Of a stretch of DNA of 64,000 bases, positions 6,298 through 21,167 are shown piece after piece; the first letter of the stretch is position 1, and the number at the start of each line of letters is the position of its first letter. A model generated the notes under the pieces. The model was given only the letters and a program-made list of their open reading frames with translations, made no database searches and was not told the origin of the DNA. The DNA is from Schmidtea polychroa (taxonomy: Eukaryota), in the NCBI GenBank assembly GCA_044892525.1, contig CM097885.1, positions 682,001 to 746,000 of the forward strand, in the 5' to 3' direction. The position numbers and the translations under genes were made by a program.

Positions 6298-7271
6298 ATA
6301 TATACTCAACCAAAACAGCCCCCCAACAAAAACATGCCTCCAAATCACTTAAGCTATTAGAAAAACAACCTAAAACTTATACTTTTATAGTATTTTAACC
6401 CTATATTTTGAAAACAACCACCTTTAATGACTCTAACTGTTTTAATCTTTAAAGCCTCAAACTCAAAAGCTTCAAACTAAAAAGAGAATAGAAAAGAAAA
6501 TGGCATTATGAAAAAGTTAGAGGGCTATTTGATCTTTATCAGATTATTGATTTTAAATTATATAAATTAAAAAATAAATGAAAAATAGTAAAACTGCTCT
6601 GAGGGGACAGTGGTATTTTTTTTTTTTTTTTTTTAACTGTCCCCTCAACAGTTTTTTTTGATCCGGATCATTTTTTTTATTTATCAACCTCTTTCGTTTA
6701 TCGAATCTCTTCCAATATACAAGCTGGCCAGACTCATACATCAGAATCAATCCGATAATAGCAGCACACCTTATTATTCGCTTCTCGCTCGAATACGATT
6801 TCATCGGCGTTTTAAGTGTGCTGCTCGAAAGTACAAATGAATTCGAAAGCGAATTCGAAAGAGGTCCGAAAACAACTGAGAAATAAATGTGCACATTACC
6901 GGGATCGATCCGGGGGTGTTCGAAAGACAGGTGGCGATAATTACCGGTTCGCCACCATCACCCGTTTCAATATTTTTTTTTTCATATTTATGTTTAAAAA
7001 ATAATTAAATAATAAAAAAATAAAATAAAATAAAATAAATAAAATAAAATATACAAGTACTTTATAAATATAAGATACCCACACTATTTTCAATATTATT
7101 TTCAAATTTTTAATATTATTTTATGTTGAAAAAAAACTAACCTCAGATGTGATTTGAACCGCTAGCATTTTGAACCACTGTGTCAGTCTAGCCCACTGCG
7201 CCATCTAGGATTGGATTTTTTGTCATTTTTTAAATTTTTATTATAAAAAATGAATAATATAAATCTTAAAA
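6298..7271 (+). repeat. Left terminal inverted repeat of the Polinton (terminal AGTAGT missing)
   Basis: Imperfect reverse complement of 19634-20645. Confidence 0.9.
7129..7210 (-). ncRNA. Putative Pol III type-2 small RNA in the left TIR
   Basis: Minus strand: A box TGGCGCAGTGG (7203-7193), B box GGTTCAAATC (7160-7151), T8 terminator (7136-7129). Confidence 0.5.
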
Positions 7272-7286
7272 AAATTTTTTCTAAAA

Positions 7287-10200
7287 ATGAATTGTAATAT
7301 TTGCAATAAAGTTTTTAAAAATAAAACTGGATTAATTTCTCACTTAAAATCGAAAGCTCATTTATTAAAAGAAAATAATCTTAATGATACAAATTCAAAA
7401 CTTTGTCTTAAATGTAAAGGAAGATTTCTACATTCTGGATATAATAAACATTTTGAAAATTGTATCGGGAAAATTAGAGAAATATTTACATGTCCTCATT
7501 GTAACTTTTCAACAAAACTAAATTTCTATTATTTAGAACATATAAAAGAATGTAAAAATAAAAAACAAAATTCTGACGATGAGGAATGTCATTCAGAAGG
7601 AGAACCTGATCATGTTGAAAGAGAAAAATATAACTGGGATAATTTTAATCATATAGATGAATTTCAATTAAAAATTAATGGGCCTGCAACTCCTGGAGAA
7701 TATATAAATAAAAATAAAAAATATATTAAAAATTCTTTCACTGAAGCTTTAAAAAATTATAAACCGACAAGGTATAATGTTATAAAATATAAAATTATAA
7801 TCAAAGCAAAATACTGGCGAGGAGCAGAAGAAAAGACAACACCCTTAGATGTTGAAATTGGAATACCCTTTAAATATTTATTTTCAATTAAAGGATTTGA
7901 TAAAACCATCAAAGAAATAATTAAAGCAGCAGAAGCAAAACAAGAGGAAGTAGAAAATGAATTAGGAGATTCAAACTTAGTATTCAACTCTTTCCAAACT
8001 TTAGTGATTGATTATTGGAGAGGATTACCACCCAATCCTAAATCTTATATTCCTACACCCTTTAAATCTAAAAATGTTATAAATGTACAGAATAATGATA
8101 ACAAATGTTTCATCTGGTCAATACTTGCACATTTACATCCTCAAGCAACAAATCCCCAAAGAGTTTCAAAATACAAACAATATGAAAATGAATTAATATT
8201 TCCCAAAGGATTCAAACACCCAATGAAACTAGAAGACATTCCAGAATTTGAAAAATTAAATAATCTTAAACTTAATATTTATGAACATGTTATAGGGAAA
8301 GAAATTATTCCAATTTATATTTCAGATAGTGGAACCAAGGATAATGGAGCACAGGACAATGAGATATATCTTTTAATCTTGGAACAAGAAAATAATCAAC
8401 ATTATGTTTTAATAAAAAACTTTCAAGCTTTTACATCTCCAGAGAATCCAACTAGTGGAGGAGGAACATGTAAAAGATGTCTTTATTATACAACAACTAA
8501 AAACTCTATGATTAAACATACAAGATTTTGTGAAAAAGATGATCCAGCTTTAATTAAAATGCCTAATAATCCCAAGATGTATTTTAAAAACTTTTCAAAT
8601 TTACTACAAACAGTTGGAGTTCTTTATGGTGACTTTGAATCTATAAACCATAAACAAGATTTGGTTTATCAATATTTAAAAATAATAGAAAAAAATAAAC
8701 TCATGGATTTATGGAACTCCTCAGTAGAGAAGATGAAACCAGAGAGGATGAAAGCCTTTCTAAGAAAAAGAAATAAACCTAATAGTGTTAAAAAAACTAA
8801 ACAATTACCATCTGCTTATAAATTATTATTTAAAAGTAATTATCCTGAACTCACAGAATCTAGAGAATATTCAATTCTAGGAGGTACCCCTGAAGAAGTC
8901 TTGAATCATTTTACTAAAAATATAAATGATCTAGAACATGAAATATTTAAAATATTAAAAACAAAGTATCCTCAAAATATTTCTAATCAACAACAACAAG
9001 AATATGAAAATACTTCCAACTGTTGGATGTGTAAACAGAATATTCTTCCTGATGAAAAAGTTATAGATCATGATCATTTAAAAAAGGAAAATAATTATCG
9101 AGGAGCAGCTCATAAAAATTGCAATCTTAATTGCCATACTCCTAAATTTATACCTGTTATATTTCATAATCTTTTTGGATATGACATACATCTATTTATT
9201 AAACATTTAGCAGCAAATGCTAAAAACTCTTTCAAAGTTATCGGCTTAACAAAAGAAAAATATAAATCAGTTGAATATGGGAAATTAAAATTTATAGACT
9301 CGTTAAACTTTCTTCAAATGTCTCTAGATGGAATAGCTAAAACAATGAAACCAGAAGATTTTAAAATCACTCGAGAATTCTTGGAAAAAAATAATATTCC
9401 TCTAGAAGAATATCCTACATGTTTAGCAAAAGGAATATATCCTTATGACTATGTTGACTCGTTTGAAAGATATAATGAAACAAGTCTTCCTAGCCAAGAA
9501 GATTTCTATTCACAACTTCAAAAAAATCATATTACAAATCAAGAATATTCTCGAGCAAATAAAATGTGGGAATTATTCAAGTGTAAAACTTTAGGAGAAT
9601 ATACAAGTATGTATTTATCCTTGGATGTTTATATTCTAGCAGATTGCTTTGAAGAATTTACAAAATCTTTTGTTCTTAAACCCTATAATTATATAACTGC
9701 ACCCTCTTTAGCTTGGGATACTATGTTATATACCATTTGGACTTCAAATATAGAAGATGCTGATAAAATTATAGATCTTTTAACTAACCTCGATATGTTT
9801 AACCAAATTAAAACAAACATTAGAGGAGGAGTCTCTTCAGTAATGGGGAATAGAGAAATAAAAGCTAGAAATGCAATAACTACTAGCCGAAGACTATCTA
9901 AACACCCTGATGATCCATATATGAAAATTAACAATGAGGAATTAAAAGAATTATTAGAAACAATGAAAAATCCTATATTTATACTTTATATAGATGCAAC
10001 AGCTTTATATTCAGGAATTATGACTCAATATTTACCAATGAGTGATTTCACTGAAATAGAGAACCCAACAGATGACCTTATGAAAGAAATACTTTCAACA
10101 TCGAAAGATTCTCCAATAGGTTACTTTATAGAATGTGACCTCGACTATCCAGATGATATAAAATCAGGAACAAGATATTTTCCTTTAGCTCCCATAAGAA

Positions 10201-11567
10201 GAAAGATTGATATCAACGAACTTTCTGAATGGCAAATCTCACAAGATAAACCTCCAACAATGAAACTTCTTTGTGATCAAACAGATCGAAGGTTTTATCT
10301 TTGTCACTATAGACTCCTCCAATTTTATCTCTCACGAGGAATGATATTAAAAAAAGTTCATAGTGTCATAAGATTTAAACAAGCTCCATTCATGAAAGCT
10401 TTTATCGAGGAGAACATTAGGTGTCGAAACATTGCAAAAAGAGAAGGTAACCTTTTTAAAGATAATAATTATAAACTTTTAAACAATTCAGTCTTTGGGA
10501 AAACAATGGAGAATGTTGATAAATATACTCATATTGAACTCCTAACAAATACTACCAAAGATATTAAGCGTTATAATCGCATGCTAGGAAAGCCTACATT
10601 TAAAAACGCACAAGTATTTTCTGAAAATCTTACTGCAGTAGAATTAAAAAATTATGAGAAAACATATAACAAACCAATATTTATAGGGTTTACAATTTTA
10701 GAACTTTCAAAATTACAAATGTATGAAACATATTATAACATCTTACAACCTATATACGGAGCAAATATATCAATGCATGCAATGGATACAGATTCAATGT
10801 TTTTAACAATAAGAACTCATGATTTACAAAAAGATATGAAAGAAAATCCTATACTTTCAAATTTAATAAATTCATCTGGAGAACTATTTTCGTTTAAAGA
10901 TGAAAAACCTTTTACTCCTATAGAAAATGGAATATTTATTCGTGCTAAACAATATTCATACGAAACATTTAGAAACCCTGAATTTATAACTAGATCATTT
11001 ATATTTAAAACTCCAGAAACAGAAGAAACCATTACACATAGATATCCTATATTTCCTAAAGAAGAAAAACCTGTAAAGGATAACAGATGTAAAGGAATAC
11101 AGAGAGTGGTGGCAAAGAATCTTTCTCATCAAGATTATATAGATACATTGAATCCAAATCATAAAGATAAAATTGATGAAATACATCAACTTAAAAGTGA
11201 AAACCATGATATTCACTTGATAGAATCTCAAAAAGTATCATTATCAAATTATGATGATAAAAGATTCATACTAAGTGATTTAAAGACAACTCTACCTATT
11301 GGAAATAATTTAATCCCTATAATAAAAAATCTAGAAAAGTTGAATAAGTTATATGATACAAAGATTACTGATCTTGATATTTATAATGTTGAAATTATTT
11401 ATCCCGAGAGAGAAATCGAGAAACCTTTATATTCTCAAGTTTTTAATCCTATATGTTTAGAACTTAAATATTTTAATACTGATCCTGAATATATAAAAGG
11501 TCTAAGTGATAAAGAATTTAAAGATCATAAATTAATGATTCATAGGTTGGCTTTCAACCATAACTGA
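7287..11567 (+). CDS. POLB: Protein-primed family B DNA polymerase with N-terminal C2H2 zinc fingers and endonuclease VII-like domain
   Basis: 1426-aa intact ORF; YGDFES exonuclease, DHDH..YRGAAH..CN, KGIYPY, YIDATALY, KLLNNSVFGK, MDTDS, YDDKRF. Confidence 0.97.
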   Translation: MNCNICNKVFKNKTGLISHLKSKAHLLKENNLNDTNSKLCLKCKGRFLHSGYNKHFENCIGKIREIFTCPHCNFSTKLNFYYLEHIKECKNKKQNSDDEECHSEGEPDHVEREKYNWDNFNHIDEFQLKINGPATPGEYINKNKKYIKNSFTEALKNYKPTRYNVIKYKIIIKAKYWRGAEEKTTPLDVEIGIPFKYLFSIKGFDKTIKEIIKAAEAKQEEVENELGDSNLVFNSFQTLVIDYWRGLPPNPKSYIPTPFKSKNVINVQNNDNKCFIWSILAHLHPQATNPQRVSKYKQYENELIFPKGFKHPMKLEDIPEFEKLNNLKLNIYEHVIGKEIIPIYISDSGTKDNGAQDNEIYLLILEQENNQHYVLIKNFQAFTSPENPTSGGGTCKRCLYYTTTKNSMIKHTRFCEKDDPALIKMPNNPKMYFKNFSNLLQTVGVLYGDFESINHKQDLVYQYLKIIEKNKLMDLWNSSVEKMKPERMKAFLRKRNKPNSVKKTKQLPSAYKLLFKSNYPELTESREYSILGGTPEEVLNHFTKNINDLEHEIFKILKTKYPQNISNQQQQEYENTSNCWMCKQNILPDEKVIDHDHLKKENNYRGAAHKNCNLNCHTPKFIPVIFHNLFGYDIHLFIKHLAANAKNSFKVIGLTKEKYKSVEYGKLKFIDSLNFLQMSLDGIAKTMKPEDFKITREFLEKNNIPLEEYPTCLAKGIYPYDYVDSFERYNETSLPSQEDFYSQLQKNHITNQEYSRANKMWELFKCKTLGEYTSMYLSLDVYILADCFEEFTKSFVLKPYNYITAPSLAWDTMLYTIWTSNIEDADKIIDLLTNLDMFNQIKTNIRGGVSSVMGNREIKARNAITTSRRLSKHPDDPYMKINNEELKELLETMKNPIFILYIDATALYSGIMTQYLPMSDFTEIENPTDDLMKEILSTSKDSPIGYFIECDLDYPDDIKSGTRYFPLAPIRRKIDINELSEWQISQDKPPTMKLLCDQTDRRFYLCHYRLLQFYLSRGMILKKVHSVIRFKQAPFMKAFIEENIRCRNIAKREGNLFKDNNYKLLNNSVFGKTMENVDKYTHIELLTNTTKDIKRYNRMLGKPTFKNAQVFSENLTAVELKNYEKTYNKPIFIGFTILELSKLQMYETYYNILQPIYGANISMHAMDTDSMFLTIRTHDLQKDMKENPILSNLINSSGELFSFKDEKPFTPIENGIFIRAKQYSYETFRNPEFITRSFIFKTPETEETITHRYPIFPKEEKPVKDNRCKGIQRVVAKNLSHQDYIDTLNPNHKDKIDEIHQLKSENHDIHLIESQKVSLSNYDDKRFILSDLKTTLPIGNNLIPIIKNLEKLNKLYDTKITDLDIYNVEIIYPEREIEKPLYSQVFNPICLELKYFNTDPEYIKGLSDKEFKDHKLMIHRLAFNHN

Positions 11568-11661
11568 AACCAACGATATTTAATTTTTTAATAATAAAAT
11601 GTCGACAATTAATTTAAGCAACTATAGCAACCTGATCTACTTTTTTAAAAATACACCCATT

Positions 11662-12273
11662 TTATAAGTAAGAATTCTTTAACCATTTTTCTCGAGATGT
11701 TTTTTTATTACTTATAACATTAGCCACCATGCCCTCCCTTTTTAATCTTATAACCTCATTCTTTATATCTTGTATTATTTGATTTGATTTCATTATTTCT
11801 TCGTCTGTCAGGATTCCATCTTCCAAAGCTTTTAATTGAAATAAAAATAATTTAGAGATTCCTAATTCTATTGATAAACAAACTTCTCTATATAAACTTT
11901 TCTTTTTAGAAGTATAAGATAATGAAACTATTTCAGTTAAGAAACCATCAGCCACAGAAATACTTCCAAGTATTACAGGTGCAAGAGTAACAACTGGTAA
12001 AGTTATGGGTAAAATAACTGTTAATATTGCAGATGCAAATCCTAAAGAATAACCTATAACTTTTAAAACTGTATTCCCTTTATTCCATCTATTTTTAATT
12101 TTTTTATAATGCTTTAATAAATCTTGTAAATGTAAGGTTTCTGATTTAAATTCTTTTACTCTCATAATTTCAAGTTCTGTGGGAGCCGAGGCCTTGGAAC
12201 CTTTGTGACCTTCGGAATAATATCCTGATGATCTCAATTCGGGGTAAATTTTTTCTTCTCTTACTTCTTCCAT
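11662..12273 (-). CDS. Polinton accessory membrane-active protein (PW/gasderminX-like)
   Basis: N-terminal IYPEL and ASAP motifs; hydrophobic hairpin VIGYSLGFASAILTVILPITLPVVTLAPVILGSISVA; located between pPolB and virion genes. Confidence 0.6.
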   Translation of the reverse strand: MEEVREEKIYPELRSSGYYSEGHKGSKASAPTELEIMRVKEFKSETLHLQDLLKHYKKIKNRWNKGNTVLKVIGYSLGFASAILTVILPITLPVVTLAPVILGSISVADGFLTEIVSLSYTSKKKSLYREVCLSIELGISKLFLFQLKALEDGILTDEEIMKSNQIIQDIKNEVIRLKREGMVANVISNKKTSREKWLKNSYL

Positions 12274-12281
12274 TTTAATAA

Positions 12282-13292
12282 TTAAAAAAATAAGACTTTA
12301 TTCTTCTGAGCACCATCTGGTACCAATACTCGGATATCAAAAGAAACTCTTGTTGAGAGGATATCTTTATACAATTCTCTCAATGCTTTACGAACTTCAT
12401 CAACATCAACCTTTTTTTCATAAAATATTAAATCTATATATTGTACAAGTGAACTAGAAAAATGAATATTCTTAGTTTTAACTTTATGTAGTCCATGTGA
12501 ATGAGTATTAACATACCAATCTCCGTGTGGTAAATCATAACTAGTCATTATAACATCACCCTTTTCAAGCTTACTATTATAATCACATTTCACAAACCAT
12601 TTCATTCTTTCATTATCATCATCAAACAAAAAGAAATAAGGATCAATAATTTTTACAACCATAAAAACACCCCATTCTTTACTGTTTGTTGTTATTAAAC
12701 TTGGTTCTATAAAATGTTTATATGTATGGGGTAATAATGTTTTATTCTGTTCTAATTCAGCAGCTCTTTTTCTAATACTATGTGTGGTGTTAATGTGTGT
12801 TCCATGAGACTCTAAATTTGAAATTCTTTTATTAAATGATGTAATCATCTCATTTATTATATTATATATTGCATTAAAAATAGTATTCATAATTTGTTTA
12901 TCTTTAGAATTTAATATAGCAGTATTTAACTTTACAACTTGTTCAGTTAACAGACTTTGTAACTTGTCAAATTTATCATTAAATCGTTGTTCGATATTAT
13001 TAAGCTTTGATTCCATTGAATCAAATTTTGTTGTTAATGAACTTTCAATTCTTGTTGTTGTTAAATCAGTATATTTTTTAACACCATCTACATATTTCTT
13101 ATTAACTGCATCAGCTTCATCAGTTGGAAAAGATAATTCTTTTATCTTGTGTCCATTTAAAATTAAATCACCCTTCATTGAATCACCTCTTTCATTAATA
13201 TATTTATTTTCTGTTAAAGTTAATATTTCTTCTGTATTAAACCCTGTTTTTATTGTTCCACCACCTCTATTACATGGAATATAAGAACTCAT
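12282..13292 (-). CDS. Putative fibre/spike-like virion protein
   Basis: GDSMKGDLILNGHKIKELSFPTDEADAVNKKYVD resembles the tail-fibre-type motif common in Polinton proteins; followed by a coiled coil and a beta-rich C-terminus; adjacent to the penton gene. Confidence 0.5.
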   Translation of the reverse strand: MSSYIPCNRGGGTIKTGFNTEEILTLTENKYINERGDSMKGDLILNGHKIKELSFPTDEADAVNKKYVDGVKKYTDLTTTRIESSLTTKFDSMESKLNNIEQRFNDKFDKLQSLLTEQVVKLNTAILNSKDKQIMNTIFNAIYNIINEMITSFNKRISNLESHGTHINTTHSIRKRAAELEQNKTLLPHTYKHFIEPSLITTNSKEWGVFMVVKIIDPYFFLFDDDNERMKWFVKCDYNSKLEKGDVIMTSYDLPHGDWYVNTHSHGLHKVKTKNIHFSSSLVQYIDLIFYEKKVDVDEVRKALRELYKDILSTRVSFDIRVLVPDGAQKNKVLFF

Positions 13293-13332
13293 TTATTAAT
13301 AATTTAAAATGGACGGAGTCCCCTGAGAGGAA

Positions 13333-14097
13333 CTAAACCTGTTTCAAATGTAAATACATTGAAATCTCTTCTCCATTAAAATCAATCAATTCTCCTTCTT
13401 GATTAAGAATTTTAAAATTAATATCCATTATATATTTTCTACATAAAGGTAAATAATTTGGAGGATTCATTCTTTCAACTATTTTATATCCCATAGGAAC
13501 TGTGTTTGAGGGAAAGGAATATAAAACATTTGTTTGTTTACCATTATTATAAGAACCTGTTATACAATCGCAATGAATATTTATTGTGTTTGTATTTATT
13601 ATTTTTATAATATGTTCTGATGTTATTATTTTATCTTCTTTTATTGTTATATCCATAGGTTTAAATCCTAAAACTGTGTGAAAGAAACAATTATCTAAAA
13701 AACTAATTTTTATATTCTTCAAAGTCATTACACATTTTGAAGTTGGTATATCCATTTTAATTTTAATACCTTCATTTGTTTTTTTAGAAAGTATATCATT
13801 TAAATCTTTTATCTCATATGCCCCAGGTTCTATTGTTATAATTTCTGGTTTATGCCCATCACGAGTTTGAATAGTAAATTTATTATTATCTTTAGTTATA
13901 TTAAAAATAGTATTATAAGCACAAAACCATAATAGCCCCAATTCATAATTTAAATTTTGATCTAATTTAATTGAATCTTGAAAGTTTATAGTAAACTCTG
14001 ATTCTTTTGAATTTATAGATAAAGTTCTTGAATATTTATCTTACATTATGTTTACCATTTTTTTTAAATTATCTTCCGGAGGGTTGTGAAGCTCCAT
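13333..14097 (-). pseudogene. Minor capsid protein (penton) with one in-frame nonsense codon
   Basis: NTIFNI..NNKF, IEPGAYEI, INIHCDCITGSY, LIDFNGEEIS motifs; the frame extends up to ATG 14097 with a single TAA at 14043-14041. Confidence 0.8.
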
Positions 14098-14130
14098 TTC
14101 TTTAGTAGTAAATTCATATAGTAAAAATCC

Positions 14131-14595
14131 TTATAGTAGAGATTCTAGATCATTATAAATTTCTTGAATTATAGATTCAAAATCCTGCGTATGCCCCTTT
14201 CCCTCTCCCTTATTCAATCTATACAAAACATATAAACTTAAAATACCACATATTTTAGTATTCAAAGGTTGAACTTGTAAAGAGTTAAAAGTATAACCAT
14301 TTGGGGAATCAATCGGAGAACCCCTCAAGAGATAATCTTCAACTTCTTTAGTAGGTTTAATCCCAAAAGAATCAAAGTAGATAGACTTCTTATATATACA
14401 AACCCAATGAGATCCTTTTTCATTTGAATTTTGATAATTGATTATTATATTCAGGGGACTCTCCAGACTTGATAATTCATCATTCATTAATATTTTAATT
14501 TTTAAATTTAAATAATTTGCATAATCTTTTAAATCAAAATTTGTTTTTGCATTTATTCCAAATGTTTTTAAAAAATCTAATATTGAAGGAGTCAT
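14131..14595 (-). CDS. PRO: Adenain-like cysteine (maturation) protease
   Basis: GSHWVC..YFDSFG..QVQ......CG catalytic H/D/Q/C pattern. Confidence 0.93.
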   Translation of the reverse strand: MTPSILDFLKTFGINAKTNFDLKDYANYLNLKIKILMNDELSSLESPLNIIINYQNSNEKGSHWVCIYKKSIYFDSFGIKPTKEVEDYLLRGSPIDSPNGYTFNSLQVQPLNTKICGILSLYVLYRLNKGEGKGHTQDFESIIQEIYNDLESLL

Positions 14596-14617
14596 TTTGT
14601 ATTTTAAAACTTCGTAT

Positions 14618-15499
14618 TTATAACTTCGTATACTTATTAAATTTATCTTTGGAAATTATTCCTTGTTTTAACAAATCATTAGAAATCTTTAAAATATCAG
14701 AATCTAAATTATTATGTCCTGCTTTCCTTGCAGCTAATAGTTTTCTTAATTCAATAAAAATATTGATGGGATTTGGTTTACCACCTTCACTAATTAATCC
14801 CTCTCCCTCTGTAACAACATAACCCTTTTCATTTTTATTTAAATAATTCTTTAAATCTTGAATATATTTTGCTTTAGAACTAGCTTTTATTAATCTTATT
14901 AAATTTAAATATTTTTTAATTTCTTCAACATCATCTGAAGAATATCCACAAAGTAATCTATAAAAATCATCTGTAAATTCAAAGTCTAAATATTCATTAT
15001 TATAAACATTTTGTGAATGAATACGTGATTTATTTTCTGAATTTGAATATAAATTAAAGTTTTGTTTATTAATTGTTATTATTTGATATCCTTCAGTATT
15101 AGTATTAAATGTGGGTCTAATTGAAGGAGGTAAATCATCTCTAATTTTAGGATCAACTTTAAGAGGTTTTGTTTTTAAAAACATTTCTTCTTCTTCCACA
15201 TTAGAAATTCTTCTGCGTTTTCTTTGATTTCTTTCAGGATGGTTTTCACTGGATTCTTTTTCTTTATCCTGCCACTCTAGTTCTTTTATTTTTTGTTTTT
15301 TATCTTCTAACTCTTTAAATTTTGCTTGCTCATTGAAATCTTCCAACTCTTTTATAGCTTTAATTGTTGGCCCCTGTTGTTGTGTTATTACCTCATTTAA
15401 TATTATAGATTCAGCATGTTGAGTTGTATCTTTTTTATTATATTTATCTTGTTCTGATTGTAATTTTTTTAAAAGTGCTAATCTTTCTTCATATACCAT
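14618..15499 (-). CDS. Polinton accessory/core protein of unknown function
   Basis: 293-aa intact ORF; RKRRR basic patch; C-terminal LLAARKAGHNN..LLKQGII segment typical of Polinton proteins. Confidence 0.65.
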   Translation of the reverse strand: MVYEERLALLKKLQSEQDKYNKKDTTQHAESIILNEVITQQQGPTIKAIKELEDFNEQAKFKELEDKKQKIKELEWQDKEKESSENHPERNQRKRRRISNVEEEEMFLKTKPLKVDPKIRDDLPPSIRPTFNTNTEGYQIITINKQNFNLYSNSENKSRIHSQNVYNNEYLDFEFTDDFYRLLCGYSSDDVEEIKKYLNLIRLIKASSKAKYIQDLKNYLNKNEKGYVVTEGEGLISEGGKPNPINIFIELRKLLAARKAGHNNLDSDILKISNDLLKQGIISKDKFNKYTKL

Positions 15500-15521
15500 T
15501 TTAATGGTATCAAAAATGGTA

Positions 15522-16100
15522 TCATAGTTCGAAGGGCTTCAAGTATAATCGTTTACCATTTTTAGTTTTACAAAGGCATCCATTCTTTAAAGATTTACAT
15601 ATTTTTTTTAAATCTTCTTTATCTTTTGAAGATAGAGATTCAGATGTAGAAATTTGATTTTTTAAAAAATCATTTAAACCTCTACCTTTATAAGGATCAA
15701 GATAGAGACCTTTGCCCTGAGACTTTTGCCGACTCCCCTCATATGGATTAAGATAGAGACCCTTTCCAACGGACACTCCCCCTTTAGCTTGCCCTACCTT
15801 CTTCATTGAATCGATTTCAGTTTGTAGTTTTTCTTTTTCTAGGTCTGTCTTTTGAGATTCTTTAGCTTTTTGAACTGTAGTTGCAATTCCTCCAGCTATT
15901 CCAGCAGCACCTGATAAACCAGCAATGATTGCAGGTATTAAAGCAGCTAATGGAAGAATGCCACCTTCTTTAGCTTCGTGGAGCTTCGCTCTAACTTGTT
16001 CTTTTACATGTTTTCCAATAAAATATTTTTTACCATCAATTACTACTGATTTATTTTTATTTGAATTTATTAATTCTTGCAAAGATTCTTCAGTTGTCAT
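15522..16100 (-). CDS. Putative virion core precursor with membrane-active peptide and protease-site repeats
   Basis: True ATG likely 16100 (MTTEES); EGG-ILPLAALIPAIIAGLSGAAGIAGGIAT hydrophobic stretch; repeated GKG-LYLxPY. Confidence 0.65.
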   Translation of the reverse strand: MTTEESLQELINSNKNKSVVIDGKKYFIGKHVKEQVRAKLHEAKEGGILPLAALIPAIIAGLSGAAGIAGGIATTVQKAKESQKTDLEKEKLQTEIDSMKKVGQAKGGVSVGKGLYLNPYEGSRQKSQGKGLYLDPYKGRGLNDFLKNQISTSESLSSKDKEDLKKICKSLKNGCLCKTKNGKRLYLKPFEL

Positions 16101-16116
16101 TTTATAATAAATAAAA

Positions 16117-16908
16117 ATGGATACTTGGAAACCAATTTTAAATAGACATAAGAGTAAATTCAATAATAAAGTATTTCCTGATAATTTTAGATTATTAATT
16201 GTTGGTTCTTCTGGATGTGGAAAGAATGTACTTGTTTTGAGAATGTTACTTGAAGATGATTTTTTAGATTATAATAATTTAATCTTTTATTCTACAACCA
16301 TAAATCAACCAGAATTACAACTTTTGAAATGTGGATTTGAAAATAAATTAACTAAAAAAGCAATAATTGATATTTTTAAAAATCAACATAGGTGTCCTGA
16401 AGAAGTTTTTCAACCTTGTGATATGGTTGATTGGTATAAGGAAAAGATTTTAGAATCAGATATTAGTAATAAAAATGATTATATTTGTGAAGAAGGGCAG
16501 GAGGCAATTCAAGTTTTATTCTCTAATAAACCTGAAGATGTTTTACATTGTGATTTACTTCCTAAAGATAAAAAGAATCTAGTTATATTTGATGATGTTG
16601 TTAATATGAAAAATCAAGAGATTCAAAAGAGTTACTTTACACGAGGTCGACATAATAATTGTAATGTTATTTATATATCTCAAACATATTATGCTTTAGA
16701 TAAAAATTCAATAAGAAATAATTCCAATTGTTTTATATTTTTTAAATTAGATCGCCGTGATAAGAATATGATTTATAATGATTTATTTTCAAATGTTGAA
16801 CCTGATAAGAATATGTTTGATATGTTTGTTGATAATCATTGGAAAGAAAAATATAATTATATTTATTTGGATAGAGAAGAAGCTGAAATATGGAAAAGTT
16901 TGTTTTAA
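16117..16908 (+). CDS. A32/FtsK-like genome packaging ATPase
   Basis: Walker A GSSGCGK, Walker B LVIFDD, RGRH arginine finger, YISQ, IRNNS. Confidence 0.95.
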   Translation: MDTWKPILNRHKSKFNNKVFPDNFRLLIVGSSGCGKNVLVLRMLLEDDFLDYNNLIFYSTTINQPELQLLKCGFENKLTKKAIIDIFKNQHRCPEEVFQPCDMVDWYKEKILESDISNKNDYICEEGQEAIQVLFSNKPEDVLHCDLLPKDKKNLVIFDDVVNMKNQEIQKSYFTRGRHNNCNVIYISQTYYALDKNSIRNNSNCFIFFKLDRRDKNMIYNDLFSNVEPDKNMFDMFVDNHWKEKYNYIYLDREEAEIWKSLF

Positions 16909-16923
16909 CTTGTTTTCTATAGT

Positions 16924-18333
16924 TCAGAAATCTGTTTTCTGTAGTTCATTATTATAAAATCTACCTAATATTTTTTCATTATTTAAATCAAAGATGCTAT
17001 ATGTTATTGGAGTTGTATAATTTATTTTATTTATAATAAAAATTTCATTTGTCCATTTTGCTGTGAATCCTTTTTCAAATTTATTTTTATATTTAAATAT
17101 TCTTACTCGGTCACCAATTTTAAACTTTGGTTTTTCAATAACATCATTTTCAATATTTACCACTTTAATGGTTTCAGGCTTCATGGAAGCATTTAAAGGT
17201 GTTAATTTTATAGAACTATGTACATCATTATTATATTCATTTACAATCTTTTGTAACAATTCATTGTTCCATTTTTGTTTTCCAATAGCAGTAAAATATT
17301 TCCACATTTTATTTTTTAATGTTCTATTTAATCTTTCAACTACGACTGCTTTTCCTTCGTTTTCTGTTGAATATAATTTAATATCATTTTCATTTAAAAA
17401 CTTTGTAAAAGCTTTGTTATAAAATTCTGTTCCTTTATCACACCATAAATATTTTGGGATTCTTTGATTTTCTTCAAATATATTTTCAAATGCTTCTGTA
17501 ATAGAATATCCTGTTTTATTTTCTAAACATCTTGCAAAAGCAAATCTTGTATATAAATCTATTACAGTTAAAATTATTTTATATTTTTCAGGGTCTGATG
17601 ATTTGGGCATAAAGACTAAATCTGCAGACCATGTTTGATCTTTTTCATGTACTTGAACTTTTAAATATTTTTTATTTTTTCTAAATTCATGGTGTAATTC
17701 CTTTGCATATTTTATTTCTGATTCTGTTGGGGTTTGTAAACTAGTCTTGGCTGTACTCTCGAGGGATCTTTCAATGTCTGCTTGTTCGATAATCTTTTTA
17801 TAAGCAACATCTTTTGCTTTCCTAGGAAGTCTTGCACCCATGGTGATCGGACTGTGTCCTAAGCCTATGAAAATCTTACCTTTCATTGCTAATTTAACTA
17901 GAGCTCTTTGAATCTTTTCTTGGGTTGATGGATTTTGGATACTATTTAAATCATGTATTAAATTCACATCTGCAACATGTCTATCTCTAAGATTTGTTGA
18001 ATTGTATGCAATGTCATGTTTTAAAGCTGCTTGATCAATTCTATTTATTGGTTCTTCTCCTTGTTTGGGATTATTATTTTCATCTAATCTAATATCTAAT
18101 CTTGTTCCTGGTCCGGTGTAGTTGTGTTTAAATAAATGTCTTTCACCTGGATATTTTTCTGTAGTAAAAGGTTTTAATATTGAAGATGTTGTTTTTGAAG
18201 ATTGCAAATCGCCTCCAGCTCGTGGAATTAGGTCACCTACTGTATGTTTTTTAGTTTTAAGATGGCTTGCTTTATGATGTCTTGTAACTTGACAATTACA
18301 AGTTTCACATCTCCAATATTTATTTAAAGACAT
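16924..18333 (-). CDS. INT: Retroviral-type (rve) integrase with N-terminal zinc finger and parvovirus-type PLA2 domain
   Basis: WSADL, LTVID, CDKGTEF, ERLNRTLK DDE core; GDRVRI..FEKG..W C-terminus; HNYTGPGT..IDQAALKHDIAY. Confidence 0.95.
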   Translation of the reverse strand: MSLNKYWRCETCNCQVTRHHKASHLKTKKHTVGDLIPRAGGDLQSSKTTSSILKPFTTEKYPGERHLFKHNYTGPGTRLDIRLDENNNPKQGEEPINRIDQAALKHDIAYNSTNLRDRHVADVNLIHDLNSIQNPSTQEKIQRALVKLAMKGKIFIGLGHSPITMGARLPRKAKDVAYKKIIEQADIERSLESTAKTSLQTPTESEIKYAKELHHEFRKNKKYLKVQVHEKDQTWSADLVFMPKSSDPEKYKIILTVIDLYTRFAFARCLENKTGYSITEAFENIFEENQRIPKYLWCDKGTEFYNKAFTKFLNENDIKLYSTENEGKAVVVERLNRTLKNKMWKYFTAIGKQKWNNELLQKIVNEYNNDVHSSIKLTPLNASMKPETIKVVNIENDVIEKPKFKIGDRVRIFKYKNKFEKGFTAKWTNEIFIINKINYTTPITYSIFDLNNEKILGRFYNNELQKTDF

Positions 18334-18371
18334 TTTAAAATGTTAAAATATCAGGGATTATATCAAGAATC

Positions 18372-19655
18372 TCACCTAACATTTTCAATAATTGAAATCT
18401 TTCCACCATATAATTTCATTTCTATTTTCTTTTCTTCTAATATTAATGTATATACTTTAGCTTTAAAATTAGAATCCTTTGTTACATGAAGTGTAACATC
18501 AACATTATTTATGGCTAGGCGATCATCTTGATCTGAAACATTTATACAAAATATAGAATATAAATTTTTGAAATCTTCTAAACTTAATTGCGGTTCAACT
18601 TTGAAATCATAACATGTTTCAATATAATTTAGATATGGGAATATGTTTTCATTATTTTCAATATTAAATTCCATTCTATTTATTGGATAATAAGAACTAT
18701 TTAATTGAATTTGGATTGTTTTTAAATTATCATCCCCAATCTTTTGAATAAATAGATTGTTATTTTTTTGGAAAGATGAATCTGTTTCTTTGAATCCAAT
18801 CAAGATATATCTTGGTCGGTATGCTAAATTTGCTACCTTTATAGAATATGTTGAACCCTCTGTCATACTAAATTCACTACAGATTATATTTAAATAATTT
18901 ACATTTATAGACTTGTTGGAATTTAATCTTTCAAGGAGTTTAATCTCAGAATGTGGGTTTAATGTCCATTCAGGTATATGTAATTCAAGTGTTGATAATT
19001 TTAATTTAGCTTTTGTATCTACAGCTCCATAGAACAATCTTTTATCACCTTCTACTCTATTACAGATGAATTCTATAAAAACATTATGAAGTCTACGATT
19101 ATAGTTTTGAAGGAATCCAAACAAGTGTTTTAATTCAAAATAACCTTCAAATTTTTTAGATTTATAAAGTTCAGCTCTTTTATAGTAACCATAATTTATA
19201 TCTAAACCATCTTTATCTAAATCTCCTTTATTAACATCAGGAATCCAGCCTGTTAATTCACCATATTCATTTTTATAATCACAACCAGTCAAAATAAAAT
19301 TTAACATTGTAGAATATACTCCCGGATGTAAAACAGTTTCAATTTCTGATGATCCTAGTTTTAATCTCATATTGGATAATAAATTTGGAAAGAAATTATT
19401 TTCTAGGGTTATATCTTTGTTTGCTTCAATTTCTAATTCGATTTTATAATATAATTTGGCATTACAAATATCTATAGGGTTTGATGTTTGAAGAGATTGA
19501 AAAACTATATCACCCCTACGATTTAAGTTTGCAATAGATCCTGAAGTTGGGGAGATTTTAAGTACATCGTTTTTCTTGATTTCATGAGTAAATTCTTTAT
19601 TATAATCAAGATTTAATTTATTTTTTTCTTGAATTTTAAGATTTATATTATTCAT
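18372..19655 (-). CDS. Major capsid protein (double jelly-roll, hexon-like)
   Basis: 427-aa beta-rich ORF with FELKHLFGF, LELHIP, RPRYILIGF, QLNSSYYP, YSIFCINVS motifs; Polinton context. Confidence 0.85.
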   Translation of the reverse strand: MNNINLKIQEKNKLNLDYNKEFTHEIKKNDVLKISPTSGSIANLNRRGDIVFQSLQTSNPIDICNAKLYYKIELEIEANKDITLENNFFPNLLSNMRLKLGSSEIETVLHPGVYSTMLNFILTGCDYKNEYGELTGWIPDVNKGDLDKDGLDINYGYYKRAELYKSKKFEGYFELKHLFGFLQNYNRRLHNVFIEFICNRVEGDKRLFYGAVDTKAKLKLSTLELHIPEWTLNPHSEIKLLERLNSNKSINVNYLNIICSEFSMTEGSTYSIKVANLAYRPRYILIGFKETDSSFQKNNNLFIQKIGDDNLKTIQIQLNSSYYPINRMEFNIENNENIFPYLNYIETCYDFKVEPQLSLEDFKNLYSIFCINVSDQDDRLAINNVDVTLHVTKDSNFKAKVYTLILEEKKIEMKLYGGKISIIENVR

Positions 19656-20655
19656 TTTTATAATAAAAAATTAAAAAATGACAAAAATCCAATCCTAGAT
19701 AGCGCAGTGAGAATAGACTGGCACAGTGGTTCAAATAGATAGCGGTTCAAATCCTAACTACGGTTAGTTTTTTTTCAACATAAAATAATATTAAAAATTT
19801 GAAAATAATAGTGTGGGTATCTTAGATTTATAAAGCAGTTGTATATTTTATTTATTTTATTTTTTTATTAATTAATTAATTTTTAAACATAAATATGAAA
19901 AAAAAAATATTGAAACGGGTGTGGTGGCGAACCGGTAATTATCACCACCAGTCTTTCGAACACCCCTGGATCGATTCTATAATGTGCACATTTATTTCTC
20001 AGTTGTTTTCGGACCTCTTTCGGATTCACTTTCGAATTCATTTGTACTTTCGAGCAGCACGCTTAAAACGCCGATGAAATCGTATTCGAGCGAGAAGCGA
20101 ATAATAAGGTGTGCTGCTATTATCGAATTGATTCTGATGTATGAGTCTGGCCAGCTTGTATATTGGAAGAGATTTGATAAACGAAAGAGGTTGAATAAAA
20201 AAATGATCCGGATCAAAAAAACTGTTGAGAGGACAGTGAAAAAAAAAAAAAATACCACTGTCCTCTCAGAGCAGTTTTACTATTTCATAAAATTTTTTAT
20301 TCTTTTTCAATTTTTTAAGTTTTATATAATTTAAAATCAATAATCTGATAAAGACCAACTCTAGAGTTTGATTACGATCAAAACAGTGCCTCAAGTAGTG
20401 CGTTTATATCCCTAACCAAAATAGCCCTCTAACTTTTTCTTTTCTATTCTCTTTATGTTTTTAGTTTGAAGCTTTTGAGTTTGAGGCTTTAAAGATTAAA
20501 ACAGTTAGGGGTATTAAGGGTGGTTGTTTTCAAAAAATATAGGGTTAAAATACTATAAAAGTATAAGTTTTAGGTTGTTTTTCTAATGGTTTAGGCGTAA
20601 TGGAGGTATGTTTTGTTGGGAGGGCTGTTTTGGTTAGGGATATAAACGCACTACT
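19634..20655 (-). repeat. Right terminal inverted repeat of the Polinton
   Basis: Reverse complement of the left TIR; ends TATAAACGCACTACT. Confidence 0.92.
19693..19775 (+). ncRNA. Putative Pol III type-2 small RNA in the right TIR
   Basis: A box TAGCGCAGTGA (19700-19710), B box GGTTCAAATCC (19744-19754), T8 run (19768-19775). Confidence 0.5.
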
Positions 20656-21167
20656 AATATTATTATATTTTTCAAGGTCATATTATTATTTTTCAAAATA
20701 TTATTATATTTTTCAAGATCATATTATTATTTTTCAAAATATTATTATTTTCAAGGTCATATTATTATTTTTCAAAATATTATTATATTTTTCAAGGTCA
20801 TATTATTATTTTTCAAAATATTATTATATTTTTCAAGGTCATATTATTATTTTTCAAAATATTATTATTTCAAAGTCATATTATTATTTTATTTTAGTTT
20901 TGTTTAAATCGTTGATTATATGATAATATTTTTATTTTGGTTTTAATTATCGATTACTTAATAATTTTTTATTTTTTTTAATTATCGATTACTTAATAAT
21001 TTAATATTGTTTAAATCGTTAATTATATAATAATATTTTTTTTGTTTTAATTATCAATTATGTAATAATTTAATTTTGTTTAAATCGTTGATTGTATGAT
21101 AATATTTTTATTTTTGTTTTAATTATCGATTACTTAATACCTTAATTTTGTTTAAATCGTTGATTAT
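20656..21167 (+). repeat. 512-bp direct repeat, right of the Polinton
   Basis: Begins immediately after ACTACT; matches 5786-6297. Confidence 0.9.

Follow-up and report, generated by a model that had tools for sequence, protein, structure and literature searches.

A putative Pol III-type module of tRNA origin in the terminal repeats of a Polinton lineage

Introduction

Polintons (Mavericks) are thought to be ancestral relatives of the adenoviruses that switch between viral and transposon life styles. Adenoviruses, which belong to the same broad realm, produce VA RNA I and II from genes with an internal A/B-box Pol III design; these RNAs are highly structured and about twice as long as the cassettes described here. 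tRNA-derived heads with A and B boxes are also typical of SINEs. To our knowledge, very little is known about the non-coding parts of Polintons or about how their integrated copies stay expressible.

In yeasts, tRNA genes keep neighbouring chromatin at bay (PMC2040200, PMC3395662, in the portions of these papers available to us), and they act as Pol III-dependent heterochromatin barriers (PMC2040200, same portion). Relatives of Polintons can carry tRNA genes as well: the accessible part of a study of polinton-like viruses and virophages gives 558 tRNAs in 8300 genomes, ordinary in kind and thought to serve codon supply (PMC12220804), and tRNA genes are drawn in the maps of related viruses in the accessible part of another paper (PMC8502044).

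The DNA analysed here (the window) is a stretch of 64,000 nucleotides from Schmidtea polychroa. An initial interpretation of its letters, which we call the sequence-only reading, had proposed that both terminal inverted repeats of a Polinton carry a VA-RNA-like Pol III cassette, and had known of no description of such a module for Polintons. The latter statement agrees with our search: in the open full-text literature, that is, outside subscription-only papers and supplements, we found no description of Pol III-type cassettes in Polinton/Maverick terminal repeats. We conclude that the cassettes are a real, lineage-specific and probably functional, selected Pol III-type module of tRNA origin.

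Results

The element that carries the cassettes spans positions 6299-20657 of the window and contains the family B polymerase, integrase, ATPase, capsid and inverted repeats that characterize Polintons/Mavericks (Table 1). Its ends, about 1 kb each, form the inverted-repeat pairs I1-I11 and are 75-98% alike in segments. The right terminus has an inverted copy about 240 nt inside (20395-20420), which makes a terminal foldback; the left end has neither this inner copy nor the outermost ~20 nt of the right terminus. The AGTAGTG terminus with an inverted copy 240-300 nt inside also occurs at L061, L062, L074, L081, L085 and L086. In the integrase ORF, a phospholipase-A2-like domain (PF08398, residues 66-147) is joined to the rve core; parvovirus capsids use such a domain for endosome exit.

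Several other features of the repeats were observed. A hairpin conserved between the two repeats (6595-6650, mirrored at about 20239-20285) has a perfect 12-bp stem, a loop of some 19 T residues, or A residues on the opposite strand, and a T8 behind it; its z-scores against shuffles are -6.1 and -7.0 on the two strands, and it is the only strongly folding stretch near the cassette in the window. Further out lies a degenerate A/B-type unit (6954-6901, minus strand) made of TGGCGAACCGG, a 32-nt spacer and GGATCGATCCC, which sits within an 8-bp hairpin, has only a T4 about 37 nt downstream and gives a fold z-score of -0.5. Upstream of most polymerase genes, 20-45 nt from the ATG, lies the motif ATTGG-N6-GTTTT, which reads as a CCAAT box in the direction of the gene (examples are L121, L124-L126 and L132); the window copy and relatives nearly identical to it lack this piece of about 29 nt. 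Contigs from runs only presumed to be RNA show an uneven summed depth over 6300-7690, and one of them runs from beyond the T-run into the capsid coding sequence; as such contigs cannot show starts, ends, strand or level, neither observation was taken as evidence. A sequencing run of a second organism (X5) contains parts of the Polinton repeat.

Table 1. Genes, terminal repeats and cassette parts of the Polinton, in window coordinates.
Feature	Position	Strand	Remarks
Protein-primed family B DNA polymerase, N-terminal C2H2 zinc finger	7287..11567	+	Pfam PF03175, E 2.8e-12; zf-met, E 1.4e-5
A32-type packaging ATPase	16117-16908	+	
rve integrase with phospholipase-A2-like domain	16924-18333	-	
Major capsid protein, double jelly roll	18372..19655	-	Pfam PF21738, E 1.1e-24
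Left long terminal inverted repeat	6299..7273		Cassette at inner end
Right long terminal inverted repeat	19634..20657		Terminus starts AGTAGTG (read inward)
Capsid-start copy (ATG + 6 codons) inside left repeat	7250..7297	+	15-codon upstream ORF overlapping the polymerase ATG
Left cassette, type c1	7129..7210	-	Read directly from the sequence
Left cassette, 5' flank	7210-7204	-	
Left A box, TGGCGCAGTGG	7203-7193	-	Perfect against the consensus TRGCNNAGTGG
Left second A-like box, TGACACAGTGG	7185-7175	-	Runs into the first GGTTCAAA
Left first GGTTCAAA	7176-7169	-	
Left B box, GGTTCAAATCA	7160-7150	-	
Left trailer	7149-7137	-	
Left T8	7136-7129	-	
Right cassette, type c1	19693..19775	+	Variant different from the left copy
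Right A box, TAGCGCAGTGA	19700-19710	+	Last box position A, not G
Right second A-like box, TGGCACAGTGG	19719-19729	+	Perfect
Right B box, GGTTCAAATCC	19744-19754	+	
Right T8	19768-19775	+	

At the inner edge of both terminal repeats lies a cassette of about 80 nt that faces outward. Read in that direction, both copies present an A box, a second A-like box, the first GGTTCAAA, a B box, a 13-nt trailer and T8. A and B box are separated by 32 nt at the left end and by 33 nt at the right end, which we take to be the spacing of tRNA positions 8-19 (A box) and 52-62 (B box), and the window cassettes accordingly have the A/B spacing of about 32 nt found in tRNA genes. With an A box, a B box and, behind them, at least 4-5 consecutive T they have the sequence make-up of type-2 Pol III genes; of a tDNA barrier or extra-TFIIIC site they have the sequence prerequisites only (A box and B box). 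The window contains the full pattern of A box, spacer, B box and T-run a single time, at the left copy, and 0/200 dinucleotide shuffles contain it; GCGGTTCAAATC occurs twice vs 0.04 times expected by chance. The left cassette is found in identical form in at least 15 other genome copies, and the variant of the right cassette is also present elsewhere in the genome (L046/L095). The neighbouring genes are divergent from the cassettes, with 84 nt between the pPolB ATG and the left A box and 45 nt between the capsid ATG and the right one.

Much of what the sequence-only reading had described is borne out here: an A box, a B box and a T8 within about 80 nt at both ends, a direction away from the neighbouring starts (the pPolB ATG at 7287 and the capsid ATG at 19655) and, from the layout of boxes, spacer and T-run, a type-2 Pol III architecture in both ends of a Polinton. 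Its statement that both copies keep the boxes stands for the left copy, with its perfect A box, and fails for the first A box of the right copy, which is mismatched at the last position.

Cassettes of the window type, c1, are abundant, with about 3048 genome matches to a core pattern vs 0 for the reversed control. They are one of three paralogous types, the others being c2 (TAGCGGAGTGG, a spacer of 33-34 nt, or 37 nt in one copy, GGTTCAATTTT and T7) and c3 (TAGCTTAGTGG, a spacer of 33-34 nt, GGTTCAAATCC with an intact T stem, and T8), the latter with about 3778 genome matches. Against the Rfam tRNA model, c3 scores 32.4 bits in L084 (cut-off 29) and 26.7 bits in L072, with mismatched acceptor and anticodon stems. 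Its anticodon loop is GCA, and its 5' half matches the host tRNA-Cys(GCA) at 28/32 positions. This host gene gives about 987 pattern matches and forms long tandem arrays with a 281-bp period; in one such array (L103-L112, G000:C1:269.25-269.29 Mb) ARAGORN confirms tRNA-Cys in two neighbouring units.

All three cassette types align to the host tRNA-Cys with their boxes in register. The GGGAATAG that follows the A box is common to c1 and c2 and absent from the host tRNA-Cys gene, and a trailer and a T-run followed by CAA are found in c1, c2 and c3 and not in the host gene. Because the cassettes share features that the host gene does not have, we read c1, c2 and c3 as a single family that would have arisen from a tRNA-Cys-like gene and then duplicated and diverged within the repeat. 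Wholesale capture of units of the host tRNA-Cys array was considered and rejected, as only the tRNA part is alike and the spacer of the 281-bp unit is not. The cassette is evidently a decayed tRNA-derived unit. The four-stem cloverleaf of a tRNA gene is absent from c1: ARAGORN returned 0 tRNAs in the window and 0 in 26 related loci and rejected every c1, c2 and c3, and Rfam gave no match to the c1 cassette except AT-rich noise (E up to 10), in keeping with the earlier remark that there is no convincing cloverleaf. ARAGORN also found no host tRNA gene near the element in the window.

The place of the cassettes is fixed. The first 30 genome matches to c1 share one position within the Polinton repeat, and in 26 a polymerase or capsid gene lies inside the 1.5-kb flank. 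In ten of 11 distinct c3-pattern places the capsid gene is followed by c2, c3, a small outward ORF and c1, and then by the remainder of the repeat; the eleventh is a tandem run of c2 and three c3 with a 243-nt period (L091, G000:C1:11481-14529, a 3-kb locus without a capsid or repeat match), which implies that the cassette unit can expand as a short tandem array. Each cassette-bearing end has 1-3 tandem cassettes, and a frequent layout on the polymerase side has two c1 units about 232 nt apart. On the capsid side, 38/38 cassettes (18 ends, 1 kb upstream of the capsid genes) face outward, and in L072/L125 and L065/L126 one and the same element pairs c2 next to its capsid gene with c1 next to its polymerase gene. 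The cassette belongs to the repeat, is not a separate insertion, and faces outward in every copy seen.

Some ends are more elaborate than those of the window element. In fuller ends (L072:3255-3490, plus strand; also L068, L077 and L088) c3 and c1 are separated by an outward ORF of some 80 codons, coiled-coil-like and rich in lysine and glutamate, which ends in a TGA that overlaps the beginning of the c1 A box; the window element has no such ORF. At L079/L080 (G000:C1:165.719-165.734 Mb) two facing capsid genes at a distance of 14.8 kb have identical cassettes upstream of them; this could be an element with a capsid gene at both ends or two elements head to head.

The genome (781 Mb) holds 2527 first-look capsid candidates, and 126/126 scored above the Pfam cut-off. 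For the capsid side, loci were chosen independently of the cassette sequence: 30 capsids were fetched, with 86-97% protein identity to the window capsid, and 29 had a readable 1-kb upstream region. Of these ends, 18/29 carry 1-3 cassettes (38 in total) and 11/29 have none within 1 kb; in 9 of the 11 the capsid gene lies about 60-150 nt from a terminal foldback of ~300 bp, the arms of which begin AGTAGT. The polymerase side was sampled at the presumed other end of 20 elements, 14 of which had a polymerase start. Here c1 is present in 5/14 ends, all with a polymerase 93-99% identical to that of the window, and missing in 9/14, where polymerase identity is 55-91%. The idea that the unit sits in both repeats of Polintons in general is thus unsupported on either side.

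The sister lineages without cassettes, which have short ends, are multi-copy, so the module is dispensable for the Polinton family as a whole. A search for distant Polinton families with the capsid Pfam model returned, among the 30 fetched, only capsids 86-97% identical, and deeper divergence was seen on the polymerase side only. Between L061-L090 and L113-L132, capsids are 86-97% identical and polymerase N-termini only 55-99%. Comparison of the two ends indicates putative modular recombination between deep Polinton lineages, and the cassette module is part of one end and polymerase lineage that shares its capsid genes with others by recombination.

Within the module, variation is unevenly spread. 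In an alignment of the host tRNA-Cys, c3, c2 and three c1 sequences, the invariant parts are the constrained A-box positions, GGTTCAA.T and the T-run, and A-box differences between the paralogs are confined to the N and R positions of the consensus. The 48 distinct c1 variants depart from one another in the A box at its R position, plus the final G in 3 sequences, and in the B box at its last position alone; both GGTTCAAA motifs are invariant, and variation is greatest in the 5' flank, linker and 3' trailer. Since 31/48 of these rows stem from searches in which part of the boxes was fixed or near-identity to the window was required, we repeated the comparison on the 16 variants whose loci had been picked independently of c1, with three rows that carry large indels left out of the alignment. 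In these, 1/17 constrained box columns vary in at least 2 sequences vs 21/55 other columns (Fisher p = 0.014, with rows that are related by descent and not independent). The copies are young and mostly 90-100% alike, which makes this conservation test low in power.

Spacing is similarly stable: the spacer measures 32-34 nt in 37/38 cassettes and 37 nt in the remaining one, and in the 37 cassettes with their downstream part inside 1 kb the T-run starts 12-15 nt past a point 9 nt into the B box. A 16-nt internal unit is missing or triplicated in the variants L008, L012 and L102. Broken boxes are found in single copies (L020, L021, L126, L132 and the second unit of L121), which is unsurprising in dead copies. 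The sequence-only reading had allowed that the boxes might prove unconserved; instead, constrained positions, spacing and T-run are kept across the paralogs and the 48 variants.

The same cannot be said of the RNA fold. The sequence-only reading had described a closing stem between the 5' and 3' parts, kept in both copies, yet over the 48 distinct variants 77.5% of its cells are paired vs 76.5% in shuffles, with 11/500 shuffles as high. One pair only switches from G-C to A-U (12 sequences), and the same pair is unpaired in 15. The folds of the two window copies (z-scores of +0.88 and -0.67) are no better than those of shuffles. Neither VA RNA nor any other known RNA family was retained as a candidate, as Rfam gave no match; the family-model match and long stable stems of an adenovirus VA RNA are both missing, and with no stable fold and no maintained closing stem the label VA-RNA-like falls away. 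The tRNA-like fold and the pre-miRNA hairpin before the terminator of murine TMER-type (MHV68) RNAs are likewise missing, there being no fold and only 13 nt from B box to T8. Because boxes, spacing and T-run are kept and the stems, linker and closing stem are not, the pattern points to selection on a Pol III promoter skeleton in spreading lineages and, as far as the alignments indicate, to none on an RNA fold.

Discussion

The cassettes likely still recruit Pol III machinery beside the outermost genes of the element. We favour, with a probability of roughly 0.4, the reading that the cassette would work at the DNA level, such that occupancy by TFIIIC and Pol III matters rather than the RNA. An insulator bound by TFIIIC had been one of the two inferences of the sequence-only reading, and the conservation pattern fits selection on the A and B boxes. 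Two sets of observations make this the best supported reading: boxes, spacing and terminator have been retained, whereas the transcript body has drifted, varies in length and has lost all its stems; and at each end a cassette adjoins the outermost start codon, including in elements whose two ends bear different paralogs. The symmetry of the two ends in itself follows from the inverted repeat and is not evidence for a boundary role. Weighing against this reading are the mismatch in the first A box of the window's right copy, the single copies with broken boxes, the multi-copy lineages that do without cassettes, and the youth of the copies, which limits the conservation test.

A rough mechanism can be proposed. 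TFIIIC would bind the A and B boxes and position TFIIIB and Pol III beside the promoter of the outermost gene at each end (the polymerase gene on the left, the capsid gene on the right). TFIIIB sits about 30 nt upstream of a Pol III start, and its predicted footprint therefore covers the ~45 nt between cassette and capsid ATG; TFIIIB and Pol III would be placed on this AT-rich stretch. In integrated copies the cassette could then serve as a chromatin boundary or keep chromatin open, with a short, unstructured transcript of ~80 nt as a by-product.

The T-run complicates this proposal. It is kept in all three paralogs and is needless for TFIIIC binding alone, which speaks for real transcription and a possible RNA function. 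The cassette might accordingly be a small-RNA gene, its effector being a 5'-triphosphate, U-tailed Pol III RNA of ~80 nt that could engage a defence protein or RNA-binding protein of the host as a decoy or a saturating ligand, like gammaherpesvirus tRNA-like RNAs, EBERs and VA RNAs. We consider this possible and, on balance, unlikely. The full gene skeleton, including a T7-T9 terminator in all three paralogs, would suit it, as would the high dosage implied by 1-3 units per end and thousands per genome and the fairly constant 5' half of c1 across variants. The duplicated A boxes recall the triplicated A box of MHV68 TMER promoters, and the tRNA-like part of a TMER alone rescues pathogenesis (both from the available portion of PMC8223928). 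However, the fold is neither stable nor conserved, the RNA body is almost completely different between paralogs and varies by +/-16 nt in length among variants, no hairpin for a miRNA lies between B box and terminator, and c1 matches no Rfam family.

Other explanations were considered as well. A piece of a host tRNA-Cys gene could have been captured, duplicated and left to decay in the repeat as a neutral passenger, in a family young enough to keep initially perfect boxes. The huge host tRNA-Cys array (~987 copies) offers a source of DNA, tandem slippage is evident, and sister lineages without cassettes have multiplied too; this is nevertheless rather improbable, as the paralogs are near-random in similarity outside the boxes and yet the spacing, the T-run, 8 B-box positions and every constrained A-box position persist, with A-box substitutions only where the consensus allows any base. 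That cassette and host unit have just the tRNA part in common, and not the spacers, also argues against a recent wholesale capture of array units. We think it quite unlikely that the cassette is a Pol II-related cis element, whether a promoter or antisense 5' leader of the capsid and polymerase mRNAs or the 3' end of an outward ORF. The gap of only ~45 nt between cassette and capsid ATG fits such a role, and so do L072-type ends, in which the TGA of the outward ORF overlaps the start of the c1 A box, but most polymerase genes have their own CCAAT-like motif nearer the ATG, and the exact tRNA spacing and the pattern of allowed substitutions would be left without a reason. Chance landing of a host SINE or MITE head in the repeat, which the sequence-only reading had named as its own possible undoing, is very improbable indeed. 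tRNA-derived heads with A/B boxes fit SINEs in general, yet the 30/30 sampled c1 matches and 10/11 distinct c3 places inside the Polinton repeat contradict it, no independent dispersed copies outside the carrier were seen, there is no body or tail, and a terminator directly behind the head is not tolerable for a SINE; the candidate was rejected.

Under occupancy by TFIIIC and Pol III, as under a small-RNA role, a broader scenario may be drawn, which we offer as a tentative one: a Polinton lineage may have domesticated a host tRNA gene as a multi-copy Pol III end module, used for TFIIIC insulation or for an abundant small RNA, and this may have aided its dominance in the genome. If true, it would be a convergent counterpart of the adenovirus and herpesvirus Pol III RNAs inside a virus-like transposon. 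A Pol III-type module that is kept, multiplied and diversified in the ends of a genome's most successful Polinton lineage would have no described precedent among the cis or RNA elements of Polintons, and the cassettes offer a clean natural case of a tRNA gene stripped to its promoter.

Comparison with known systems

Among described systems, adenovirus VA RNA I and II share the internal A/B-box design, whereas the cassette has no stable fold or Rfam match, is derived from a tRNA-Cys and sits in a terminal repeat; nothing supports homology between the two. tRNA-derived SINE heads resemble it as decayed tRNAs with intact A and B boxes in a mobile element, but the cassette is not independently mobile and has its terminator right after the head. 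The tRNA genes of polinton-like viruses and virophages are likewise tRNA-type genes carried by Polinton relatives; those are ordinary tRNAs, whereas the cassettes are undecodable by ARAGORN (0 in the window and the 26 loci). tDNA barriers and extra-TFIIIC sites are closer to our preferred reading: they too are A/B-box DNA whose role comes through TFIIIC/Pol III assembly, placed between a gene and neighbouring chromatin and often multiple (PMC2040200, PMC3395662, as far as the available portions of these papers go). They are host loci with proven factor binding, unlike the Polinton units, which are mobile and for which binding is predicted only.

The TMERs of MHV68 have no sequence relationship to the Polinton units, whose expression is putative; TMERs also retain a tRNA-like fold, with miRNA hairpins ahead of the terminator, whereas c1 is foldless and runs directly into T8. 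In organization the two are alike, both being clusters of tRNA-derived, non-canonical Pol III type-2 units at the end of a DNA virus or virus-like genome, with multiplied A-box motifs (PMC8223928, in the portion of the paper available).
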